Below, in pieces: positions 444-12,982 of a stretch of 64,000 bases of DNA. The translations under genes and the position numbers were made by a program. Source of the stretch: Leptospiraceae bacterium (GTDB lineage Bacteria; Spirochaetota; Leptospiria; Leptospirales; Leptonemataceae); NCBI GenBank assembly GCA_040217195.1, contig JAVJNR010000002.1:288001-352000 (forward strand). Direction: 5' to 3'. Each line of letters begins with the position of its first letter. Position 1 is the first letter of the stretch. Under the pieces are notes generated by a model. The model saw only the letters and a program-made list of their open reading frames with translations, was not told the origin of the DNA and made no database searches.

Positions 444-1925
444 ATGAGCAACTCCAGCCCTGAAATATTACCAATTCGAACCCGTATGGGTTACGGAGCC
501 GCAGAAATGGGCATTTTTGCGGTGGAGATGATGGTGCGTCTGCATCTGATGAAGTTCTACACCGATGTGGCCGGCTTAAGCGCTGGATTGGCCGGGATGG
601 CCATTGCGGTCGCTATGTTCTGGGATGCCTTTACCGATCCTGTGATGGGAATTCTATCCGACCGAACCACTATGAGAATGGGTAAGAGGAGACCGTACCT
701 ATTGCTGGGGAGTTTTGTCATGGCCCTGGCTTTTCTGGCCACTTTTAGACCTCCCATGCTGGATACAGAATCCGGTCGTTTCATTTTTCTTCTCATAAGC
801 TATATAATTCTGAATACGGCCATGACCGTGTTGGCCGTCCCTCATTCGGCCCTGGGCGGAGAGCTTTCTTTTGATTCAAACGTCAGAACCTCAGTTTTCG
901 CCTTCCGGCTGTTCTTTGGTAATATGGGCTTACTGGCTGGTACGATTCTACCCATTGTATTTTTGGATACCATCGCGCCTGCAATGGGAACCGGAGATAC
1001 TCCCGGTGTAAGAGATCCGGAGGCAGCCACCCAGGCCTATTTCTATGGAGCGGCCGTAATCGCCGGGCTAATTCTGCTGACTGGCTGGGTCAGTTACATG
1101 GCAACCGCGGGTAGAGACCGACCGGCCGAAAAGAGGCCTCCGTTGCGCGGAAAGGCCATTCTGAATGAAATCGGCCGGCTATTCCAGGTTCTGCGAAACC
1201 CTATCTTTGTCGTTCTTCTGGGTGCGTACTTCATCGCCTATGTTGGTGTTTCCATCAATTCTACTCTGGCTCTCTATTACTATGAATACAGGCTCAGACT
1301 GGATAGCGGCTCGGTGGGCATCATTCTGGTAGTTTTTATCATTGTATGGTCTGCATCGCTGGTATTCTGGACCTGGCTTTCACGAAAGGCTGGCAAGAAG
1401 TATCCAGGATTTGCCGGAGTATTCCTTCTCGGACTTGCAACCTGCATTACGTATCCATTCTTTCCTCCTGGCGAAATCCTGTATCCGCTAATCATGTCTG
1501 TGCTCGGAGGTTTCCTCGTAGGGGCCATTGTACTTCTGGATAGTCTGGTAGCTGACATTGTAGATTACGATGAGCTGAAGACAGGTGAACACCGGGAAGG
1601 ACTGTATTTTGGATTCTGGAAAATGGCTATCAAGGCATCCCGGGGAGTGTCCATGGCATTTACCGGAACTCTCCTGGCTGCCATAGGATTCCAGGCAAAT
1701 CAGATTCAGACCGAAGAAGTGAGCAATCGTATTGCAGTACTCTTTGGCCCGGGCGTTGGCGCATTCTTTCTACTGGGAGCCATTATCTTTCTATTTCTTC
1801 CCTACAGCCGGGCCATCCACCACAGGGTTCAGAATCTTCTGGTGCGAAAGAGAGAGCTTCGAAACCGCTTGCGTTCTGGTTCAGCCCACTTCCAATCCTC
1901 TGTGCAAACAGGAGGAACGGTATGA
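444..1925 (+). CDS. MFS transporter, GPH/MelB (glycoside-pentoside-hexuronide) family
   Basis: About 12 hydrophobic segments; motifs WDAFTDPVMG-x-SDRT, GKRRPY, ADIVDYDE-x-TGEHREG. Confidence 0.9.
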   Translation: MSNSSPEILPIRTRMGYGAAEMGIFAVEMMVRLHLMKFYTDVAGLSAGLAGMAIAVAMFWDAFTDPVMGILSDRTTMRMGKRRPYLLLGSFVMALAFLATFRPPMLDTESGRFIFLLISYIILNTAMTVLAVPHSALGGELSFDSNVRTSVFAFRLFFGNMGLLAGTILPIVFLDTIAPAMGTGDTPGVRDPEAATQAYFYGAAVIAGLILLTGWVSYMATAGRDRPAEKRPPLRGKAILNEIGRLFQVLRNPIFVVLLGAYFIAYVGVSINSTLALYYYEYRLRLDSGSVGIILVVFIIVWSASLVFWTWLSRKAGKKYPGFAGVFLLGLATCITYPFFPPGEILYPLIMSVLGGFLVGAIVLLDSLVADIVDYDELKTGEHREGLYFGFWKMAIKASRGVSMAFTGTLLAAIGFQANQIQTEEVSNRIAVLFGPGVGAFFLLGAIIFLFLPYSRAIHHRVQNLLVRKRELRNRLRSGSAHFQSSVQTGGTV

Positions 1926-3775
1926 ACTTGAATGATTTTTTGCAACGTTATCCCTGGTCCAGATGGAACGTGGATCCAGAAAAAGAAAGAATCGTGGAAA
2001 ATCTCTGGATTTTCCCACTGGAAGTTAGTCGAGAAGATTTCTGGCCCTACATAGCAGATACATCCAGAACCAATAGCTTGCTGGGACTTCCAGAAATGAT
2101 TTTCGAAGAGAAGAATGGAAAGCTTTTCGGAAAGACCCGGTATGCAGGCATTCAGCATGAATGGGAAGAGGTGCCCTGGCAATGGCGTCGACCGGAAGAG
2201 CTGATTTCCGTGCGTCTGTACTCAAAGGGATTGGGCAGCATGGTTCGCGGAATTTTCTATCTGGAAGAATCCGGTGAAAACCGGACAAATGTACATATCT
2301 ATTTTGGATGGGTTGCCAGTGGTCTATTTGGCGCTCTATTTCTGAAAATCGGAACCGGAAGAATTAAATCCGGATTCGCAAACGTACTCAAGCAATACGA
2401 AAAAGAAATCCAGAGTTCAAAGACTAAAAAGCCGGCTGCGTTGACAACAATTGAGAAGCCAGTGATTGACCTGGAAGATAAGGCCAGAGCCATCGTGGAT
2501 CAGACGCGAAAGACCTGGGATAAGCAGGCAATTCCAGCGGAAGTGTCCGAGGCCCTGGTTCGAATTGTTACTCGATGGGACGATGTAGACCTGTATCGAA
2601 TTCGTCCATTGTCTCTGGCCGATCAGCTAGGTCTGGACAGCAGGGAGGTGATTCGAGCCTTCCTTTACGGGTGTCAGACAGGGCTATTTAATCTTACCTG
2701 GGACGTTATCTGTCCTCATTGTCGCGGAGTTAGAGAGGAAAAGGGCAGCCTGATGAAATTGGACGCCAGAGGCAGCTGCGACGTATGCGATATAGATTTC
2801 GATGCAACCGGCGAAGACAGTCTGGAAATTACCTTTCATGTCAGCCCATCGGTTCGGGACGTTAAGAAACAGTTCTTCTGTAGTGCAGAACCGGCTCGAA
2901 AGCCGCACATCATTCTGCAAGACCACCTACTTTCTGGAGAAGAGCGGAACGTAAACCTGCAACTGGATTCTGGCAGATACAGAGCAAGGCTCCAGGGAAG
3001 TCAGTCATTTTTCTGGCTCCAGTCCGATGACCTGAGCGGAATTCAAAGATATCGGTGGGAGGCAGGTGCAACGTCGACCGGAGAACCGGTAAGTGTTATC
3101 ACAAGGCCGGTCCTGGAATTAAAGAACTCGGATTCTAAAGCATTAACCTTCGTTGTCGATCGCAGCGATGCAGACAATGAAGTCCTGCGACCGGGGGATT
3201 TGTTTGCTCTGCCAGACTATCGATTACTGTATCCGGATGAAAGGCTCCCGGGAGATCTGAAAATAGACATCGGTGTACAGACCATCCTGTTCACTGATAT
3301 TGTCGGCTCTTCAAAAATGTATAATGAGCTGGGAGATACCGGGGCCTTTAAACGAGTAAGGGACCATTTTGCCTCCATCGGTGAAGTCATAGAATCTGGC
3401 AAGGGAGCGATAATAAAAACAGTAGGCGATGCTGTCTTTGCTGTCTTTGGAAACCAGGTCGATGCGTATCGCGCAGCTCTGGAATTGCGAAAGAGATTCG
3501 CAAGCACCGATGCCGCAGTTCAGATTCGCATATCATTGCATACAGGCCCCTGTCTGGCTGTGAACCTGGATACAGGCATCGATTACTTTGGAAACACTGT
3601 GAACCTGAGTGCCAAGCTTCAGGCATTTGCAGGCGCCGGGCAAATCGCATTCACCGGATCTGCTCTGGAAAGTTCCCTTGTAAGGGAGGAGCTTCGCAGG
3701 GAGGGATTGAGACCACAGGAGGTGGATTTGCCGGAGTCCATGAGCTGGATTCCGGACAAGGTGTACCGGGTATGA
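1922..3775 (+). CDS. Class III adenylate/guanylate cyclase with N-terminal SRPBCC-like region and DUF5939-like Cys4 domain
   Basis: C-terminal LFTDIVGSS, IKTVGDAVFA, ISLHTGP, DYFGNTVN motifs; CPHC...CDVC in the middle; ATGA overlap with the MFS gene. Confidence 0.85.
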   Translation: MNLNDFLQRYPWSRWNVDPEKERIVENLWIFPLEVSREDFWPYIADTSRTNSLLGLPEMIFEEKNGKLFGKTRYAGIQHEWEEVPWQWRRPEELISVRLYSKGLGSMVRGIFYLEESGENRTNVHIYFGWVASGLFGALFLKIGTGRIKSGFANVLKQYEKEIQSSKTKKPAALTTIEKPVIDLEDKARAIVDQTRKTWDKQAIPAEVSEALVRIVTRWDDVDLYRIRPLSLADQLGLDSREVIRAFLYGCQTGLFNLTWDVICPHCRGVREEKGSLMKLDARGSCDVCDIDFDATGEDSLEITFHVSPSVRDVKKQFFCSAEPARKPHIILQDHLLSGEERNVNLQLDSGRYRARLQGSQSFFWLQSDDLSGIQRYRWEAGATSTGEPVSVITRPVLELKNSDSKALTFVVDRSDADNEVLRPGDLFALPDYRLLYPDERLPGDLKIDIGVQTILFTDIVGSSKMYNELGDTGAFKRVRDHFASIGEVIESGKGAIIKTVGDAVFAVFGNQVDAYRAALELRKRFASTDAAVQIRISLHTGPCLAVNLDTGIDYFGNTVNLSAKLQAFAGAGQIAFTGSALESSLVREELRREGLRPQEVDLPESMSWIPDKVYRV

Positions 3776-3783
3776 GGTAGAAT

Positions 3784-4680
3784 ATGAAGTATCTGATTAA
3801 GGATCTCAGTAAATTAACAGGCTTTGACGGTGCCAGGATTCGAAAATGGCAGGAAAGGTATGGCATTCTGCGTCCAGAACGAGGGGCTAATGGCTATTGG
3901 TACTACGGAAATGAAGATTACATAGTGTTGCAGAATATGAAGCGGCTTCTGCAGAAGGGCGAAAAGCTGCAATCTGTGATTTCACTGGGTCGTGATCATC
4001 TGATTGGTATGATGGGTGCGGATGATTTCTCCGAGCATGAAATGTCACTCATTCAAAGAATCTCCTCCAATGAATTCTCCAGTATCGAAGAGGACTTTAA
4101 TGAACTCTATTCGCAGATGCCTTTTGGTCAGTTTGTTCGTGGTCCTATCCGGGACGCTGCAGTACTAACGGGGAGTGCCTGGGAAGCGGGCCTATTGTCC
4201 GTAGCCGAAGAGCATTCATTCTCTCGCTGGCTATTTACTTACATCTATGGAAAGACAGGTGCACTGGGCATTCCATCTGATCCTGTATGGCTGGTTTGTG
4301 TCTTTCCTGGAGATCCCCATGAACTGGGTGCGTTGATGCATTATGCGCTTCTGGTTTCGAAAAGGGTTCCGGCGAAGTACGCAGGGACTCTGTCCATAGA
4401 TCATATTATCGATGAAATTAAGAGGAACGGATACAGAAATCTAAGTCTGTCGATGATCATGCCTCAATCACCAGAAAAGATAGAAAGCATTCGCAGTCGC
4501 ATAAAGGAAAGGACCGGACTGCGAAAGGTTCTGATTGGAGGAAGAGGCTACAGGTCATCTTATTCGTCTGGAGAGGACGGTGATGGTCTTCAGTACTGTG
4601 AGCCGCCAGTGATTAATAAGCGCCGGAAAATCCTCCTGGAAAACATAAATAGATCAATAGAGAGCTCGAAGCAGGACTAG
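3784..4680 (+). CDS. MerR-family regulator with cobalamin-binding domains (CarH/LitR-like)
   Basis: N-terminal MerR HTH (IRKWQERYG-x-LRP-x-R); W133-x9-E143-H144; D177-x-H179-x2-G182; C-terminal LIGGRG. Confidence 0.85.
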   Translation: MKYLIKDLSKLTGFDGARIRKWQERYGILRPERGANGYWYYGNEDYIVLQNMKRLLQKGEKLQSVISLGRDHLIGMMGADDFSEHEMSLIQRISSNEFSSIEEDFNELYSQMPFGQFVRGPIRDAAVLTGSAWEAGLLSVAEEHSFSRWLFTYIYGKTGALGIPSDPVWLVCVFPGDPHELGALMHYALLVSKRVPAKYAGTLSIDHIIDEIKRNGYRNLSLSMIMPQSPEKIESIRSRIKERTGLRKVLIGGRGYRSSYSSGEDGDGLQYCEPPVINKRRKILLENINRSIESSKQD

Positions 4681-4726
4681 AGGAAATTGCGAAATACTTA
4701 ATCAATAGCAATTAGAGGTAAATTGG

Positions 4727-6007
4727 ATGAGGGTAGGAATTGTTGGAAGCGGTATCTCCGGTCTCGGGGCCGCGTATCATTTAAAGACAAGATACGGTCA
4801 TGACGTTGAAATCTTTGAAAAGAACAGTTATGCAGGCGGCCATACCAATACCATACCACTGGAAGAGGATGGTCATCCGGTGGCAGTGGATACAGGTTTC
4901 ATAGTCTTTAATGAACGGACCTATCCAGAACTGATCAAACTATTCGCAGAATTGGATGTGGAGTCCCAGCCAGGGGATATGTCCTTTAGCGTCTGGAATT
5001 TGCGGAATAATCTGCAATGGAGTGGAAACGGTTTCTCAGGTCTCTTTGCTCAGAAGCGAAATCTAATGAATCCCCATTATCTGCGAATGCTTTCATCCGC
5101 GAAGCGCTTTTTTAGTGAAGGTGCGGAAGATACAAACCTGGACCCTGATCTGTCGATTGGGCAGTATCTCGGGGACAGAGGGTATTCTAAATATTTCTGC
5201 GATAATTTTGTAATCCCCATGGCCTCCGCCGTTTGGTCCACTCCTATGAAAGAGATGCTGGGTTTTCCCGCCGGATCTTTGCTGCGCTTCTTCAAGAATC
5301 ATGGAATGCTAGATATTGAGAAGACTGTGATCTGGCGAACGCTTTTGGGCGGTTCCTGGACCTACGTTAAAGCGATTCAGCAAAGAGCGGATCTGAAAAT
5401 TCATCTGAATCAGCCCACCCGAGAAGTGAGAAAAAACGAGGGTGGGGCGATGATTGTTACTGATTCCGGAGAACACCAGTTCGACGCAGTGCTCATGGCC
5501 TGCCATTCGAATCAGGCAATCGGCCTGTTTCCGGGTATGCCGGAAGAGCATCGAAACATTCTGAAGCATTTCAAGTACCAGAAAAACCAGGCCATTTTGC
5601 ATAGCGACGAGCGTGCGATGCCACCAAGAAAGAAGGCCTGGGCTGCCTGGAACTTCAAAGTCACTGAAGATGAGCGGACTTGCACAGTTTACTGGATGAA
5701 TAAGTTGCAGAATCTGCACAAGCAGGGGGCGCAAAGAGAATACTTCGTATCCATCAATGAATTCCAGAACATCGACGAATCCAAAATCCATCGGGTTATC
5801 AACTATGAGCATCCACTGTTTGATGTTCAGGCAGTGAAAAACCAGAAAGAACTTCTTCGAATCAATCAGGAAGGACCGGTCCATTACTGCGGTGCCTATT
5901 TTCGATACGGCTTTCATAAAGATGGACTGTGGTCCGGGCTCCAGGCGGCCAGATCTCTGAATGAGCGGTTGGTAGGTTCGGAGGCTCTTGCAGGACGCGG
6001 AAAGTAG
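4727..6007 (+). CDS. FAD-dependent oxidoreductase, COG2907 / UfaD-like fatty acyl desaturase
   Basis: GSGISGL dinucleotide-binding motif, GGHTNT, VDTGFIVFN-x-RTYP, WAAWN, Y-x-HP, GAYF-x-YGFH-x-DG. Confidence 0.85.
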   Translation: MRVGIVGSGISGLGAAYHLKTRYGHDVEIFEKNSYAGGHTNTIPLEEDGHPVAVDTGFIVFNERTYPELIKLFAELDVESQPGDMSFSVWNLRNNLQWSGNGFSGLFAQKRNLMNPHYLRMLSSAKRFFSEGAEDTNLDPDLSIGQYLGDRGYSKYFCDNFVIPMASAVWSTPMKEMLGFPAGSLLRFFKNHGMLDIEKTVIWRTLLGGSWTYVKAIQQRADLKIHLNQPTREVRKNEGGAMIVTDSGEHQFDAVLMACHSNQAIGLFPGMPEEHRNILKHFKYQKNQAILHSDERAMPPRKKAWAAWNFKVTEDERTCTVYWMNKLQNLHKQGAQREYFVSINEFQNIDESKIHRVINYEHPLFDVQAVKNQKELLRINQEGPVHYCGAYFRYGFHKDGLWSGLQAARSLNERLVGSEALAGRGK

Positions 6008-6027
6008 TCCCGAGTCGAGTATTGTCA

Positions 6028-6966
6028 ATGCAGGATCAGATTCTAAACAGCGTAATGTACAATGCCACTGTGTATCACAGAAGAATGCAGGTGGCCATAC
6101 ATGAGTTTCGCACCAGTATGTATACCTGGTATCTGGATCTGGATGAGCTCGATTCATTGAGCGAGAAGCATCCAATTCTTATTGGAGTGAATCGTTCGGG
6201 AATTTACTCTTACAGGGATTCGGATCACTTCCGATTCTGGAACGCAGAAAGAAAGGAAAATGCGAGCATCAATCCTGCAATTCCGGGAAAGATGCGAAGG
6301 AAGGAAAACTCAAACGCGAATTCAAAGAAGTCGGGAATTTCTGCTGCAGCTACTGGCGCCAGTCAGGTGCGCTCCTGGGTGAATCAGTATTTCCGCGAAA
6401 AGGACCAGCCAGAGCCCCATCGTGTTTTGTTGCTTACGAATCTGAGATATCTAGGTTATGGTTTCAATCCGGTGAGCTTCTATTTTGCTCTGGATCGGAA
6501 AGACCGACTCTATGCAATTCTAGCGGAAGTAAACAACACATTTGGAGAACAGAAGCCGTACTTGATACTGCTGGATAAGCCGGTGGAGGATTCTGAAGAT
6601 AAGCGAATCCATGCCCGGGCCTGGAAGAATTTCTATGTTTCTCCCTTCATCGACCGGGACCGAGAATTCGTTTTTCGCATGAAGAGACCAGGAGAGAAGC
6701 TCAGTCTCGGAATAGATACATACGAATCGGAGCAGCCAGTCTTGAGAGCGGCTTACTCCGGGCGACGAATGGCCATTACCCGAACAAGTATGCTTATGAA
6801 TATGCTTCGCTTTCCGTTTGTAACGATCAAGGTAATAGCACTGATTCACTGGCATGCTTTACGTTTATATCTGAAGAAAGTTCCATTTTTTAGCAAGGAA
6901 TCAACGGACAAACTAATCAGGAAAGATGAAAACAAAAGAAATGAGGTTACCCATGCTGCGGTCTAA
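6028..6966 (+). CDS. DUF1365 family protein (UfaO-like)
   Basis: H-x-R, LDLDEL, GY-x-FNPVSFY, AEVNNTFGE, K-x-FYVSPF, IHWHAL-x-L-x2-KKVPF motifs. Confidence 0.88.
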   Translation: MQDQILNSVMYNATVYHRRMQVAIHEFRTSMYTWYLDLDELDSLSEKHPILIGVNRSGIYSYRDSDHFRFWNAERKENASINPAIPGKMRRKENSNANSKKSGISAAATGASQVRSWVNQYFREKDQPEPHRVLLLTNLRYLGYGFNPVSFYFALDRKDRLYAILAEVNNTFGEQKPYLILLDKPVEDSEDKRIHARAWKNFYVSPFIDRDREFVFRMKRPGEKLSLGIDTYESEQPVLRAAYSGRRMAITRTSMLMNMLRFPFVTIKVIALIHWHALRLYLKKVPFFSKESTDKLIRKDENKRNEVTHAAV

Positions 6967-8245
6967 ACAAACTCCCCAACATTTCCTCAAAGGAAATCGA
7001 CTTCCCCAAAAAGAGATCCAGGATTATCCCCGAGGATTTTATCAATCAGTGTTCCACCGTGTCATGTCCCGGGCTACCAGCGGGCAACTGAATCTAGAAA
7101 TAGGAGATGGAACTCATATATATGGTGAATCCGGCTCAGCGGAGGCGGTAAGTCTACGAGTACTGGATGACAGATTTTTCAAGCACGCCGTGCTGCACGG
7201 AGATATTGGATTCGGTGAAGGTTTTGTAGAAGGTCTATGGGACACAGATGATCTTCATGGAGTGCTGAGCTGGTTTCTGCAGAACGGAGATTCCAATCCT
7301 ACTTTCGCTCAGGGGGCAGCCAAAAGCCTGGTCGTGGGCGGGCTGAATTTTCTGGACAAAGTCGGTCATGCCTTTCGTCGGAATACCCGGCAAGGCAGTC
7401 TTAGAAATATTAGCTATCACTATGATATCTCCAACGATCTGTACAGGCTGATGCTGGATCCAACAATGGCCTATTCTTCTGGCAAATACTCCGAAGGAGT
7501 CAATGATCTGCAGAAGGCTCAGGAAAAGAAATACGAGACTATCTGTCGTAAGCTTGCCCTGAAACCGGATCTGGAGCTGCTTGAAGTGGGCTCCGGCTGG
7601 GGCGGCTTTGCCATATATGCAGCAAAGCACTATGGATGCAAAGTTACTACTGTTACAATTTCGCAGCAGCAGTTTGACTATACCCGGGAATTGATAGAGA
7701 GTGAGGGTATGGAGGATCGTGTTAAGGTTTTGCTTCAGGATTACAGGGATATTGAAGGAACCTATGACCGAATCGTTAGTATTGAAATGGTGGAAGCTCT
7801 GGGTCTTGAATACCACGATACATTCTTCAAGAAAATGAATCAGCTACTTAAAACTCAGGGAATCATGCTAATACAGTGTATAACGTTCCCGGAGAGCTCT
7901 TATGATCGATACGTTCAAAGCATAGATTGGATTGCGAAACACATTTTTCCAGGTTCTCTGTTGCTTTCCCAGTTTGAAGTAATGAAGTCGCTTAAAAGAG
8001 TAACGGATCTCAACATCTATAGCATTGAAAGCCTGGGTCTGAGCTATGCCAGGACTCTGAATGCGTGGTATGAAAGATTCAATGCCAATTTGGAACGGGT
8101 CAGAGAACTGGGTTTTGATGATACGTTCATTCGACTCTGGAATTACTACCTGGCATACTGCGAAGTAGGTTTTGCCAGTCGATACATCAATGATGTTCAC
8201 ATAGTGTTTTCCAGGTCTCAGAATACAGAATTGCCAGACGGTTAA
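6953..8245 (+). CDS. Cyclopropane-fatty-acyl-phospholipid synthase family methyltransferase (UfaM/CfaS-like)
   Basis: HYDISND, MAYSS, LEVGSGWGG (SAM binding), SIEMVEA, HIFPG, WNYYLAYCE-x-GF; start placed after SD GAGGT (alternative 6926). Confidence 0.9.
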   Translation: MLRSKQTPQHFLKGNRLPQKEIQDYPRGFYQSVFHRVMSRATSGQLNLEIGDGTHIYGESGSAEAVSLRVLDDRFFKHAVLHGDIGFGEGFVEGLWDTDDLHGVLSWFLQNGDSNPTFAQGAAKSLVVGGLNFLDKVGHAFRRNTRQGSLRNISYHYDISNDLYRLMLDPTMAYSSGKYSEGVNDLQKAQEKKYETICRKLALKPDLELLEVGSGWGGFAIYAAKHYGCKVTTVTISQQQFDYTRELIESEGMEDRVKVLLQDYRDIEGTYDRIVSIEMVEALGLEYHDTFFKKMNQLLKTQGIMLIQCITFPESSYDRYVQSIDWIAKHIFPGSLLLSQFEVMKSLKRVTDLNIYSIESLGLSYARTLNAWYERFNANLERVRELGFDDTFIRLWNYYLAYCEVGFASRYINDVHIVFSRSQNTELPDG

Positions 8246-8271
8246 AGAGTCTTAGAACAACGGAGGTATCT

Positions 8272-8520
8272 ATGTCGGAAGAAACAGAAGACATGCTTAT
8301 GAAGAGCATGGAATCCCAGCTGATCACTCTCTATGGAGAGCGGGAATTGCTGCTGGAGGAATTGGGTGTATGCAACGCTCAAGAATTGATCGCACTGATT
8401 AAGAGCATGGAAGCGCAACTGGCAGACCTCTACGCTGATAGGGAGAATGCCATTATAATAGATGGAAATCGGATAACGATTTCGGGCCCAAAGAAGATCT
8501 TTGTCCGAAAGAGTAAATAA
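8272..8520 (+). CDS. PYP-associated hypothetical protein with two KSME-x-QL-x2-LY repeats
   Basis: Strong SD GGAGGT; 82-aa ORF; internal repeat; fills the gap between cfa-like gene and pyp. Confidence 0.8.
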   Translation: MSEETEDMLMKSMESQLITLYGERELLLEELGVCNAQELIALIKSMEAQLADLYADRENAIIIDGNRITISGPKKIFVRKSK

Positions 8521-8546
8521 TTCCGCGAAAGGAAAAGGAGAATACA

Positions 8547-8972
8547 ATGAGTGAAGCAATAATGAAGAAAATCCAGGAGCAAGCCGCCTACTGGGCCCAG
8601 AGCAGTGCCAGGTTTGTGGAAGACACCGTAGTTGAGGAGATTGCTGGCTATGATCGTTCGAAAATCGATGAGCTGCCCCATGGAGTCATTAAGCTGGATG
8701 ATGAAGGGAAGGTCCTATTGTTCAGCCGATATGAATCCCAGAAGTCCGGTGTCCCCGTTGCAGAAGCGGAAGGTAAGCTGTTTTTCAGCCAGGTGGCTCC
8801 CTGCACAAACAATGCAATCTTTCTGGGAGCATTCCAAAAGGGTGTGTCGGAAGGGCATATGGATTTGATTTTTCCTTACACATTTACCTATAAGATGAAA
8901 CCCGCTCCGGTAAAGGTTCATCTGTATCGCAAGGAGGGAACCAGGGATAACTGGGTCTTCATCAAGTGGTAG
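8547..8972 (+). CDS. pyp: Photoactive yellow protein
   Basis: Ungapped match to the PYP core as I recall it: GVIKLD-x2-G, E63 (=E46), GK-x-FF-x2-VAPCT (C86 = chromophore Cys69), F-x-YTF-x-Y-x-M-x-P-x2-VKVH, WVF-x-K; SD AAGGAG. Confidence 0.93.
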   Translation: MSEAIMKKIQEQAAYWAQSSARFVEDTVVEEIAGYDRSKIDELPHGVIKLDDEGKVLLFSRYESQKSGVPVAEAEGKLFFSQVAPCTNNAIFLGAFQKGVSEGHMDLIFPYTFTYKMKPAPVKVHLYRKEGTRDNWVFIKW

Positions 8973-10471
8973 ATGTCTGGAAGAATCTACTTTACCGGCG
9001 GCTGAAAGGAAAGTCGGAGCCTTTATTTCTATTCCCGGAGCAAGCCGTGTCAGCTGCGGCTCTGTGGATGGGAGTAAGGCTCTGGTTGCAGCGCTGGCAA
9101 AGAGAAGATCCGGTTGTGTTTGCAGCCATCGGAGCAGGTCCCGAATACCTGGAGGTATTGGTGGCTACGCTGGTGCGAGGAGGTACTTTTGTTGCCGGTC
9201 ATCCGGAACAGGGATTCGAACATCTCAGGACTGAAATCCTGCAGTGGCAACCAGACTTTGTGGTTCTGGATAGGCATTCATCCTTTACAATTCCCGGATA
9301 TAGGATATGCGATGAAGTCAACGAACATCGTAATGCCTTACTGTTAGGCCGGATCCATGGTTACGAAGATTTGCAGGAAAAGCACCCTCTGCGGCAATTC
9401 CACTCATCTGAGCGAAGAATCATTCTTTCCACGTCTGGAACCACAGGTGGTCAGCGAAAATGGGCTATCCTTTCAGACTACAATCTATTTAGCGTATTGC
9501 GCACTCATCTACCCAGACTACAAATGAAAGGCGCTACGGTTCTGAGCGTACTTCCCTGGAATCATGCCTTTGGATTAATACTGGATCTAATTCCTGCACT
9601 CCTCCGGGCTCGCACTATTGTCAGAGACATTCCAGGGGACGCTTCCCGATTTCTCGCTGTTCAGAAACGATTTGGGATTGATTATGTAAGTGCAGTCCCC
9701 GCAGTATTCGATCGTTGGCTAAAGGATGACTCCGTTAAAGATGTAATCGGAAGCTTTACAGGTGGTCTGCTCGGAGGAGCTTCCGTAAATTCTCAACTGG
9801 CCAATGCACTTCGCGGTAGTAGCTTTCGAGTTGGATACGGGCAAACCGAGGCATCACCCGGAATCACTCTTGGAAATGCCGGAGATTTCAAACAGGGATT
9901 TATTGGCAACGTACTGGGATGTGAAGTAGATATCTCACAGGGAACATTGCATTATCGTGGTCCCAACGTTTGCACTGCCATGGTTAATTTCACCGAATCG
10001 CCAGGTATTCAATTCTCTGAATCGACCAGAGTAGCGCTAGAAGATGCAATGCATTCGTTAACTATAGGGATTCAAAAAAGAGATTCGGGTAACTGGCAGG
10101 ACACCGGCGATATAGTCCAGGAAGTGGAGGGCGGTTTCAGATATCTGGGCCGTGCCAATGATAATTTCAAACTCTCCAATGGACGTTTTCTGGATGCCAT
10201 TGCCTGGGAGAAAGCCCTGGAAGAATCCACCGGGTATCATTGCTATATCGTTTCATTTGATGGTGGTTTCAAAGTCTACTTCGCAGCCCCGGACCATGAA
10301 TCCGGTAAACAATCATTCCCTACGATAAAATTACAAGCCAGACAGTCTCTGGGAAAACTAGGCGAATACATTCGAGGGATGGAGTTCCTGCAGGCCCGGG
10401 ATATACCTCGCAGCTCCAAGGGCGATGTGAATCGGTCCGCACTATCCAATCCAAAGGCCGGAGGATCATAA
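8966..10471 (+). CDS. pcl: AMP-dependent ligase, probable p-coumaroyl-CoA ligase for PYP chromophore attachment
   Basis: STSGTTG P-loop, LPW-x-HAFG, GYGQTEAS, DTGD, GR-x2-D-x-FK; overlaps pyp stop. Confidence 0.8.
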   Translation: MVDVWKNLLYRRLKGKSEPLFLFPEQAVSAAALWMGVRLWLQRWQREDPVVFAAIGAGPEYLEVLVATLVRGGTFVAGHPEQGFEHLRTEILQWQPDFVVLDRHSSFTIPGYRICDEVNEHRNALLLGRIHGYEDLQEKHPLRQFHSSERRIILSTSGTTGGQRKWAILSDYNLFSVLRTHLPRLQMKGATVLSVLPWNHAFGLILDLIPALLRARTIVRDIPGDASRFLAVQKRFGIDYVSAVPAVFDRWLKDDSVKDVIGSFTGGLLGGASVNSQLANALRGSSFRVGYGQTEASPGITLGNAGDFKQGFIGNVLGCEVDISQGTLHYRGPNVCTAMVNFTESPGIQFSESTRVALEDAMHSLTIGIQKRDSGNWQDTGDIVQEVEGGFRYLGRANDNFKLSNGRFLDAIAWEKALEESTGYHCYIVSFDGGFKVYFAAPDHESGKQSFPTIKLQARQSLGKLGEYIRGMEFLQARDIPRSSKGDVNRSALSNPKAGGS

Positions 10472-10472
10472 T

Positions 10473-10994
10473 ATGACTAACAATTCAACGGAAATGGAAG
10501 GGCTAATTTCCAACAGTAAAGTAGAGCATCTTCTGGAATACTTACTCTCCGACGCTCCGCTTTCTGAGGAACAAAAGCAACACTTAACAGAAGAGGCGAA
10601 TACCTGGAAGCAGGACTTGCTAGATCAGTCTTCCATATTTGCGCAAACCAGGCAGCTGCAATCCTACATTGCCCTGCGCTTCACCGAACTGAAGGCTCGC
10701 TGGATTATCTTGAATGCTCGAATACAGGACTGCAACCGCCAGCTGGTTCAGCCAGATCCTGAATTACTCTACCAATCCTCCATTCTCAGTGGATTCCTGG
10801 GTATGCTGGAAGAAGGATTGGAGGCAGGTAGACTGCATCTAATCAATGATGCCCTGGCAAACCAGGCATCAAGTCTGGAAGGCGGGCCGTACGTGGTTAT
10901 CGAGGGAGATCAAGTGATTATTGAAGGAAAGCGAAAGGTGATGATCTATAGAAAGAGCAGTTTAGACGATGATTCTAACAAGCAGTCCTCCTGA
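10473..10994 (+). CDS. PYP-cluster hypothetical helical protein with C-terminal beta motif
   Basis: SD GGAGGA; 1 nt after pcl stop; overlaps tal start. Confidence 0.75.
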   Translation: MTNNSTEMEGLISNSKVEHLLEYLLSDAPLSEEQKQHLTEEANTWKQDLLDQSSIFAQTRQLQSYIALRFTELKARWIILNARIQDCNRQLVQPDPELLYQSSILSGFLGMLEEGLEAGRLHLINDALANQASSLEGGPYVVIEGDQVIIEGKRKVMIYRKSSLDDDSNKQSS

Positions 10995-12528
10995 ACCAGA
11001 GCAACTGGAGGCACTGACCGATTCTGTTCAGATCTCTACTGAAGTCCAGCAGGTCGCTATCGTCAGCAGGCAGCATTTTGACCGTGCCGTTGCGGCCGGA
11101 CAGTCTATATACGGAACGACCACCGGCTACGGTCCATTTGTAGGCTTTCAGGCCCGGGAAGATGGAGGAACTGATTTAATTGAGCATTTGCTTGTTGGAA
11201 GCGGCGAAGCATTGCCTCCAGATCTAATCTCCCCGGCCCTTTATTTGAGGGCCTGGACCATGGCCCAGGGAAGGTCTGGAGTGCGAATCCCGGTAATTCA
11301 GGCTTATCTGGATGCACTTGGTATTTGTCAGACAGGAATGTATCCGGAAATTCCATCCATCGGATCTCTGGGTGCCAGCGGTGATCTTATACCTCTGGCT
11401 CATCTATTGAATGCAATTCTTGGCAGGGGCTCATGGAAAGGGCACTCCGGTAAGACCAGAGTTGCAAATCTAGTAAAAGGTCATTCCATGGATAGACGCG
11501 AAGCCCTGGCCTGTATCAATGGAATCAGTTTTAGTAAGGCCGGCGCTTCTCTGACTTACTGCAAGCTGAATCGCCTACTTCGGATACATGAAATACTGAC
11601 AGCCATTCTATACTATCTTCTGGATGCCAACCCGGATCATCTCAGCCCTACTCTTTTTCAGTCTGCGAATCCTTCCAATACAGCCGGTCGAATGCTCAAT
11701 TATCTAAACTCAATAAATAAGCGAGCGAGCCAGGGAAACTCCGGTCATTCAGGCGCGAAAGATCTGCAACACAGCGCAGAAGGCGAAAGCCCGCGTCATG
11801 GCTACGCACTTCAGGCCCCTTACAGTCTTAGATGCGCTCCACAGACCATAAGTGCCTGCCTGGGGCTATTGAATTCTGCCAGAAGCTCTATTTTTCAGGA
11901 TCTTGAAACCATCGATGACAATCCATTGATCGATCCGGAAACAGGTTTTGTAGCTCATGGAGGAAATTTCTTTGGGCAGTCCACTGCATTCGGCAGCGAT
12001 GAGCTTACAATGGCCGCCTGTCAGTCTGGAGTGCTGGCCGAGCGCCAGCTGGCCTTGATTCTGGATCCAGACTTAAATGGCGAAGAGGCATTGATGCTGG
12101 CGAGAAAACCAGGCCATAGCAGCGGGCTTGCAGGACTGCAACTGACTACTACAGCTCTGGTGGCTGAAATGAGAAGTTTGAGCCAAATGCATAGCACCTA
12201 CAGTATTCCTACGAACGGCAAAAACCAGGATATTGTACCTATGGCCTTTCTGGCTTCCAGACGTGCCCACCAGGTTACGATTCATCTTTCGGCTGTTCTA
12301 GGAGCTCTTTTAATGGCTACCAGAAATCTCTGGCAAATGCGAAATGAAAATGAGGTAGTCTTTGATTATCCCTTCTGGCCGGAACATCGTCTTCGAATGC
12401 TCAGCGAAGCAATTGTCCTGGCTGGAGAAATGGAATACCCGGATGAGTCCCTGGGAAAAACCCTTCAATTTTATCAAAGAGCATTAATAAACCGGGAGAT
12501 CTTGAGCGATGAAAATCTATACCCTTGA
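10969..12528 (+). CDS. tal: Aromatic amino acid ammonia-lyase, tyrosine ammonia-lyase type
   Basis: YG-x-TTG-x-G, MIO-forming ASG in GSLGASGDL-x-PLAH, YSLRC-x-PQ, DNP, HGGNF, NQD; HL selectivity pair (IEHLL-x-G-x-G). Confidence 0.88.
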   Translation: MILTSSPPEPEQLEALTDSVQISTEVQQVAIVSRQHFDRAVAAGQSIYGTTTGYGPFVGFQAREDGGTDLIEHLLVGSGEALPPDLISPALYLRAWTMAQGRSGVRIPVIQAYLDALGICQTGMYPEIPSIGSLGASGDLIPLAHLLNAILGRGSWKGHSGKTRVANLVKGHSMDRREALACINGISFSKAGASLTYCKLNRLLRIHEILTAILYYLLDANPDHLSPTLFQSANPSNTAGRMLNYLNSINKRASQGNSGHSGAKDLQHSAEGESPRHGYALQAPYSLRCAPQTISACLGLLNSARSSIFQDLETIDDNPLIDPETGFVAHGGNFFGQSTAFGSDELTMAACQSGVLAERQLALILDPDLNGEEALMLARKPGHSSGLAGLQLTTTALVAEMRSLSQMHSTYSIPTNGKNQDIVPMAFLASRRAHQVTIHLSAVLGALLMATRNLWQMRNENEVVFDYPFWPEHRLRMLSEAIVLAGEMEYPDESLGKTLQFYQRALINREILSDENLYP

Positions 12529-12982
12529 GACTCAGGTTACTCTGAACGCTTCGGTGAAGGAGGCCTGGGAATTCTTTTCTGATCCTGGAAATCTAAGCAC
12601 TATTACACCGGCATCCATGGGCTTTGAGATTACTCAGCAGGATGGAAAATCTATGTATCCGGGGATGATGATTGGTTATCGCCTTCGGCCTTTTGGCGGG
12701 ATTCCTATTGGATGGGTCACTGAGATTACCCATGTCCGGGAGCCCTATTTCTTTGTGGATGAACAACGTTTTGGTCCGTATCGGCTTTGGCATCATAAGC
12801 ATTTCTTCGAAGAAACCGAAAGTGGATTGCATTGCCGGGACCTAGTTCACTATGCATTACCGGGTGGTTTGGCCGGACGGGCGCTGCATCCTTTCCTGAT
12901 TCGTCCACGTCTGGAGCAGATTTTTTCCTTCAGGCGAATGGTACTGTTAAAGATATTTCGTGGTCCGGAAGTAGAGGATTAG
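12509..12982 (+). CDS. SRPBCC/START-like ligand-binding protein
   Basis: W-x-FFS-x-P-x-NL-x2-ITP, FVDEQ-x2-GPY-x2-W-x-H-x-H-x-F, IF-x-FR. Confidence 0.85.
   Translation: MKIYTLETQVTLNASVKEAWEFFSDPGNLSTITPASMGFEITQQDGKSMYPGMMIGYRLRPFGGIPIGWVTEITHVREPYFFVDEQRFGPYRLWHHKHFFEETESGLHCRDLVHYALPGGLAGRALHPFLIRPRLEQIFSFRRMVLLKIFRGPEVED

Follow-up and report, generated by a model that had tools for sequence, protein, structure and literature searches.

A PYP operon with predicted, previously undescribed accessory modules in a Leptospiraceae bacterium

The pyp operon and its two small genes

The window, i.e. the whole stretch of 64,000 nucleotides analysed here (contig JAVJNR010000002.1 of a Leptospiraceae bacterium, positions 288,001 to 352,000), contains a run of genes on one strand from 444 to 12982. 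According to Pfam and NCBIfam they encode, in this order, an MFS transporter, a DUF5939 adenylate cyclase, a CarH-like regulator, a flavin oxidoreductase, a DUF1365 protein, a cyclopropane synthase, an 82-aa ORF, the blue-light sensor photoactive yellow protein (PYP), a CoA ligase, a 173-aa ORF, an ammonia-lyase and an SRPBCC protein. Neither library has a family for the 82-aa or the 173-aa ORF; the former is adjacent to pyp, its end being 27 bases away. A scan for promoters and terminators gave results at chance level. Judged from its sequence this feature is real, a PYP operon with previously undescribed accessory modules: a helical domain A (~130 aa), a helical repeat R (~35 aa) and a beta tail B (~22 aa). 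They are located in Table 1.

Table 1. Genes and protein modules of the pyp cassette (window positions)
Feature	Position	Strand	Basis or remark
82-aa gene, R-B architecture (~1.5 R copies + beta tail B)	8272..8520	+	immediately 5' of pyp
R repeat region, residues 10-58 of the 82-aa protein	8299..8445	+	own R profile; tandem copies in relatives
Beta tail B copy 1, residues 60-81 of the 82-aa protein	8449..8514	+	tail profiles, family alignment
PYP, clade-B type, 141 aa	8547..8972	+	chromophore Cys motif; ~20-residue N-terminal extension
AMP-binding enzyme, probable p-coumaroyl-CoA ligase (pCL)	8966..10471	+	PF00501; role from position and from the available part of PMC12826048
173-aa gene, A-B architecture without R	10473..10994	+	profiles; AlphaFold2 model
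Domain A, residues 6-134 of the 173-aa protein, helical bundle, invariant Trp77 and Asn81	10488..10874	+	
Beta tail B copy 2, residues 140-161 of the 173-aa protein, three predicted strands	10890..10955	+	
Aromatic amino-acid ammonia-lyase, probable chromophore TAL	10969..12528	+	PF00221; substrate inferred from context

The PYP of the window matches TIGR02373 with an E-value of 1.5e-27 and 96 bits, i.e. under the 143-bit cut-off, as do the Leptospira clade-B PYPs in the available part of Xing et al. (PMC9664959). The chromophore-binding Cys and the Glu46 equivalent are both present. At the position of Tyr42, whose equivalent is present in short Leptospira PYPs, stands a Phe; the same Phe is found in two Leptospira rows among the data of Xing et al. 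that were available. The N-terminal extension (8547-8612) is absent from the short Leptospira PYPs.

Upstream of the cassette and on the same strand (3784-8245) lie the genes of the CarH-like regulator, a B12-binding MerR protein, of the flavin oxidoreductase, of the DUF1365 protein and of the cyclopropane synthase. The same set, along with the genes for the SRPBCC and MFS proteins, is found around the cassette of another genome (G033, locus L153). This arrangement suggests that set and cassette may form a light-induced membrane-protection regulon. Directly 5' of the CarH-like gene stands the cyclase gene (1922-3775; 617 aa, DUF5939 and class III cyclase); another, different cyclase gene adjoins the tail-less cassette of genome G326 (L149).

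Modules A, R and B and their arrangements

A preliminary description of this locus proposed that the two small ORFs, otherwise unrelated, share a C-terminal beta motif. Its letters and positions are correct: 8452-8514 encodes residues 61-81 of the 82-aa ORF (8272-8520), and 10893-10958 residues 141-162 of the 173-aa ORF (10473-10994). By direct pairwise comparison the similarity is insignificant: BLASTP between the two ORFs gives an E-value of 0.45, and the two tails, which belong to diverged R-type and A-type classes, have 5 ungapped identities out of 22 (23%). By profile, however, the sharing of the tail exceeds chance. Tail profiles were trained on proteins of other genera and assayed on the 32,586 six-frame ORFs of this genome. 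The profile of seven R-B proteins places the 82-aa ORF first (E 4.6e-11) and the 173-aa ORF second (E 0.0017), the next match being at 0.65. That of five A-B proteins also has the 82-aa ORF as its best match (E 1.1e-4; the following one at 0.04), the 173-aa ORF not being among its best rows, and a profile of nine fused proteins reaches the 82-aa ORF at E 5e-6 and the 173-aa ORF only at E 1.9. Aligned against each other by hhalign, the two family alignments score 94.3% (E 1e-7). One part of the proposed motif falls away: the closing RKS is a chance resemblance which requires a gap without counterpart in the family alignment, and all four orthologues of the 173-aa ORF have KRG or KKG at this position. 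Loss of the motif in orthologues and a non-significant profile similarity, the two outcomes named beforehand as telling against it, were both looked for and neither was observed. On these comparisons, the shared motif is a matter of common descent and retained function, not of convergence.

The two ORFs, each searched against 61 related genomes, matched the same open frames in several of them. We conclude from these searches that the 82-aa and 173-aa proteins are two forms of one previously undescribed modular family, and that common membership in it explains why the two genes beside pyp share their tail. The architectures encountered are R-B, Rn-B, A-B, A-R-B and A-R-R-R-B, besides tail-less R and tail-less A. 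The bodies of the two proteins cannot be aligned, yet they are the R and A modules of this family and are fused in relatives; the proteins are not "otherwise unrelated", and the tail, rather than a tag common to unrelated proteins, is the C-terminal module that a single family (R-B, A-B, A-Rn-B) has inherited.

How an A-B protein arose is suggested by genome G322, which has the gene order of the window with an A-R-B gene standing where the window has A-B. The simplest history that we infer is that an A-R-B gene lost its R and retained B: R-B and A-R-B genes would have occurred together in the operon, and in this lineage the latter gene would have become A-B. On the best tree of domain A, a quick and poorly resolved one (8 of its 55 branches starred), A-B proteins have three origins, and a single origin is also compatible.

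The profile of the fused form retrieves 609 cluster representatives at E <= 0.001; Bacteroidota, Armatimonadaceae and Kapabacteria are represented among the 150 for which matches were listed. Family libraries gave only scattered weak matches to the fused members and to A proteins, the ESM Atlas no named relative, and plasmids no match for an A protein. In a 73-row alignment of domain A the invariant or near-invariant columns are W77, N81, Y70, E72, E113, L128 and P131. One database protein (P0049) runs through R, a garbled PYP and A in a single frame; it seems to be the three-gene cassette assembled with a frameshift rather than a true fusion.

Predicted fold and conservation of the tail

AlphaFold2 supports the helical bodies and strand tails of the preliminary description. 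The model of the 173-aa protein (mean pLDDT 90.3) is a helical bundle followed by three strands at 140-159, and that of the 82-aa protein consists of helices 2-31 and 36-58 and of a hairpin of strands 61-64 and 67-70. Strands 1 and 3 of the tail carry runs of three hydrophobic residues, which suggests that B would be buried on both faces. We give an even chance to the reading that B is an oligomerisation module holding the R and A proteins together, in a predicted complex serving the adjacent PYP. Given its small size and its hydrophobicity on both faces, B would be unable to fold by itself and would complete a sheet with the B tails of other chains. This would restore, non-covalently, the union of A and R found within a single chain in relatives: A-R-R-R-B fusion genes in three genomes (G024, G032, G036) and A-R-B fusion genes in Leptospira-type genomes count in favour of oligomerisation, as do the retention of B on A proteins that have no R and the low confidence of the tail in the 82-aa model (pLDDT 65-67). 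Against it, the tail already forms a three-strand unit in the 173-aa monomer (pLDDT 81-84). Moreover, several loci (L011, L033, L037) have a single fused B-bearing gene, so hetero-assembly cannot be the only use of B.

The same monomer model, in which B folds within A-B, would suit a different and in our estimate unlikely reading: B as a mere intramolecular cap, or as a passenger from duplication of the end of an A-R-B gene, with no role between chains. Common ancestry alone could explain the sharing of the tail, and B is missing from most cassettes. A passenger would hardly be expected, in contrast, to be kept on three different bodies, to be the most conserved part of one of them and to remain invariant in most orthologues of the R gene.

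These points of conservation are as follows. In four of five congeneric genomes the tail of the 82-aa gene shows 10-14 silent codon changes and not a single amino-acid change, and in the same comparison the 48-codon body of this R gene has 4-11 amino-acid changes. For the 173-aa protein the congeners differ at 4-6 of 21 tail positions vs 28-31 of 100 body positions; conservation of its tail does not clearly exceed that of its body, and this counts against oligomerisation by B. Both tails are conserved in Leptospira, with pN/pS ratios of 0.29 (10 genomes) and 0.21 (11 genomes) that are uncorrected and near saturation.

Used alone, a tail profile trained on 27 tails reaches E <= 0.001 for 41 matches; these come from 20 of the 61 genomes, and PYP is present in all 20. 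Of ten weaker matches four lie at E 0.005-0.035 and six are one further gene, a third paralogue. In the genome of the window it is situated outside the window and unlinked to pyp (G000:C10:796792-797589, or L186:6793-7590; 265 aa). Among the 42 genomes of the family six have it, and all six are of this genus. It comprises a diverged A domain with a rewritten core motif, an acidic linker, a short coil and tail B; hhalign scores it at 97.6% against the A alignment and 92.4% against the tail alignment. Its tail is its most conserved part, with 18 of 21 positions invariant across the six genomes at 52-61% overall identity; its pN/pS values were set aside, as a wrong ORF stood in one of the six rows. 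The 14 kb around it contain no pyp; its neighbours are a pair of hydrolase-like genes on one side and a Vut_1 transporter gene on the other. Being conserved in both sets of orthologues, under purifying selection, always C-terminal and present on a third paralogue, B is plausible as a functional interaction module.

Fold searches with domain A and R-B found no match above background. The best match of domain A is the helical bundle of Jac1 (Z 8.6, rmsd 2.7, 86 residues aligned) and R-B reaches at best Z 5.0, neither above background; Foldseek gave no match at E <= 0.001. In PDB sequences, the profiles of A, R-B and the tail met only weak or coiled-coil matches. The tail has basic ends rich in Lys and Arg, and a likeness to strands 3-5 of CsrA was considered. 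That it binds RNA or membrane as a partial CsrA fold is nonetheless very improbable: the basic ends differ between family members, and hhalign against this genome's own CsrA scores 0.5%. As a candidate, CsrA/RsmA was rejected, PF02599 matching one other gene here, the one used in this comparison, and neither ORF having a Pfam match.

The closest mechanistic analogy to B is the C-terminal beta-helix or beta-prism of T4 gp5 and VgrG, which has short strands and Ile-x-Gly turns and folds only as an oligomer. B differs in having only three strands and no phage or secretion context. The 26-position tail profile, a query too short for a firm negative, gave no match below E 0.33 among PDB sequences and no relevant one among Pfam or PHROGs families.

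PYP, chemosensory proteins and known systems

R homologues and PYP are present in exactly the same 21 of the 61 related genomes, some of which are kin and not independent. In metagenomes a DNA pattern of the A core found 68 loci, 66 of them with an A gene. These are accompanied by PYP in 46 cases, R in 43, pCL in 29, TAL in 29 and tail B in 2, as far as the recovered flanks extend, many contigs being short and some loci near-copies; the recurrent cassette is A-R-pyp-pcl-tal. With 2 of 66 loci, B is dispensable for the wider system, which counts against oligomerisation by B, as does genome G326 where R, a short PYP and A occur together, all without tails. The tail is not a general part of the PYP system: outside Leptospirales most A/R/PYP cassettes are without B. 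R and pyp are also tied by duplication: in G033 the R-B gene and pyp were copied together (L153:5289-6952). A duplication of an R gene and pyp is seen as well at L103:4736-7105, a locus unrelated to the former. At two loci (L121:10177-11636 and L087:1149-1811) GvpL/GvpF gas-vesicle genes lie 3' of the A-R-pyp-pcl-tal cassette.

Outside Leptospirales, the end of many R proteins is formed by a different conserved beta hairpin, B2, in which Pro, Ala and Trp are invariant (L063, L087, L121 and 11 more metagenome loci). Homology of B2 to B was considered and is unsupported; the two do not align (hhalign 0.4%). Finally, 22 long R arrays (P0020, P0028, P0030 and 19 more) end in a PYP-like domain. The chromophore Cys is missing in all 18 with a readable motif; thus they are not simple sensor fusions.

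The tail of the R protein and the extension of PYP go together. Of 56 PYPs, six without a visible R gene and one truncated were dropped; among the 49 unfused ones with an R gene in the locus, and with a length threshold and three tail labels fixed after inspection of the data, the 34 whose partner is beta-tailed are all extended and the 15 whose partner is tail-less are all short. This agreement is what the main rival to oligomerisation would lead one to expect, i.e. that B docks on the N-terminal extension of PYP and recruits both proteins to the photoreceptor, the common partner envisaged in the preliminary description. That a PYP-like domain occupies the place of the tail in the 22 long homologues points the same way. 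We consider docking rather unlikely all the same. The correlation amounts to one supported independent pair (four on the best tree), a single clade of short PYPs is compatible with the data (p-AU 0.33), and independence from descent could not be demonstrated on the PYP tree. Half of the extended PYPs (17/34) have partners that carry not B but the unalignable B2, and the fused PYP-like domains lack the Cys in all 18 readable cases. In 11 Leptospira genomes both tails are kept while no pyp lies between the two tailed genes and the sole PYP is short and located elsewhere; the tails should then need each other, or a partner other than an extended PYP. Oligomerisation and docking on the extension can be compatible with each other.

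Domain A is linked to chemosensory proteins in other lineages. In 7 of 66 scanned homologues it is fused ahead of a CheW-bearing CheA-like body, and one further CheA ends in A. Two such fusion genes sit in pyp operons (L089, L116), and in three loci an MCP gene lies directly 5' of R-B. Fusions with A in the place of Hpt were recorded at L089:6975-8615 and L116:229-1746 and in P0060, P0064, P0068, P0097, P0128, P0137, P0163 and P0124; some may be dead kinases, since three have no HATPase match. In Leptospira loci without pyp (G058, L151:4338-8050), R-B and A-R-B genes are flanked by a short-chain dehydrogenase gene and an MCP-domain gene, the latter with a Cache domain at its C-terminus.

In CheA-like proteins domain A forms an N-terminal helical bundle, in the place normally taken by the P1 (Hpt) domain of CheA. 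It differs from P1 in having no conserved His in the 73-row alignment and no Pfam Hpt match, and A is therefore better read, from its sequence, as an input or docking domain than as an Hpt. An Hpt identity was considered and rejected, the invariant phospho-accepting His not being found.

These fusions, in which CheA stands in the stead of B, and the MCP neighbours would also accord with docking of both proteins by B on a third partner, for instance an MCP/CheW array. A variant has A-B loading the chromophore with pCL and TAL, as pcl and tal flank the A gene in this window, in G322 and in several metagenome loci. We hold this pair of possibilities to be quite improbable: B-bearing genes persist in Leptospira loci where the surrounding 14 kb contain neither pcl nor tal (L151), and known pyp-pcl-tal operons function with three genes according to the available part of PMC12826048.

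To return to oligomerisation, the A/R complex held together by B would bind or scaffold PYP and relay the light signal, most plausibly to chemosensory components. The PYP cluster of the window has no MCP or CheA gene, which counts against a chemosensory output. Such an R-A complex would be a testable candidate for the missing signalling partner of PYP. A broader and tentative reading, which we judge possible, sees in A, R and B the signalling apparatus that is still missing for clade-B PYPs. R would scaffold the photoreceptor, and A would read its lit state and relay it to outputs, CheA-like or other. At the C-terminus of R, an exchangeable assembly address would be provided by B in Leptospirales and by B2 or a chromophore-less PYP domain elsewhere. 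In this genus, B might also connect the unlinked third paralogue, with its rewritten A, to this complex, as a second output or an inhibitor.

Three small, soluble, easily expressed modules can now be named as travelling with clade-B PYP, and the question of the PYP partner becomes directly testable. The natural split form (R-B and A-B) allows assembly to be tested by a deletion of 22 residues, with tail-less cassettes, fused genes and Leptospira loci without pyp as natural controls. A light-gated PYP partner, if true, would be of interest to optogenetics.

In the available parts of PMC9664959 and PMC12826048, signal relay by single-domain PYPs is stated as unknown, and the neighbourhood surveys counted annotated domains only. 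The PYP literature searched gave no description of modules A, R and B; these genes may be mentioned in Meyer et al. 2012, which both surveys cite. Within the literature found, the sole experimentally shown partner of a single-domain PYP is PBP of Rhodobacter capsulatus (RCAP_rcc01067), a small acidic protein encoded beside pyp (bioRxiv 10.1101/2021.06.01.446672, available part). The 82-aa gene is likewise adjacent to pyp. By its description there, PBP differs, with 142 aa and N-terminal helices plus beta sheets, from the all-helical bundle of A and the helical repeat of R.

The association of PYP with a CoA ligase and an ammonia-lyase is likewise that of the pyp-pcl-tal operon of Halorhodospira halophila and of the Leptospira clade-B PYP loci (available parts of PMC12826048 and PMC9664959). 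In the accessible part of the Data Set of Xing et al. (PMC9664959), two Leptospira rows read None, PYP, ligase, None, lyase, which is the order of the window. No description of the two "None" genes was found in the available parts of these two papers. Compared with those Leptospira loci, as far as the two papers were available, the "None" genes are resolved here into modules A, R and B, and they accompany an extended PYP.
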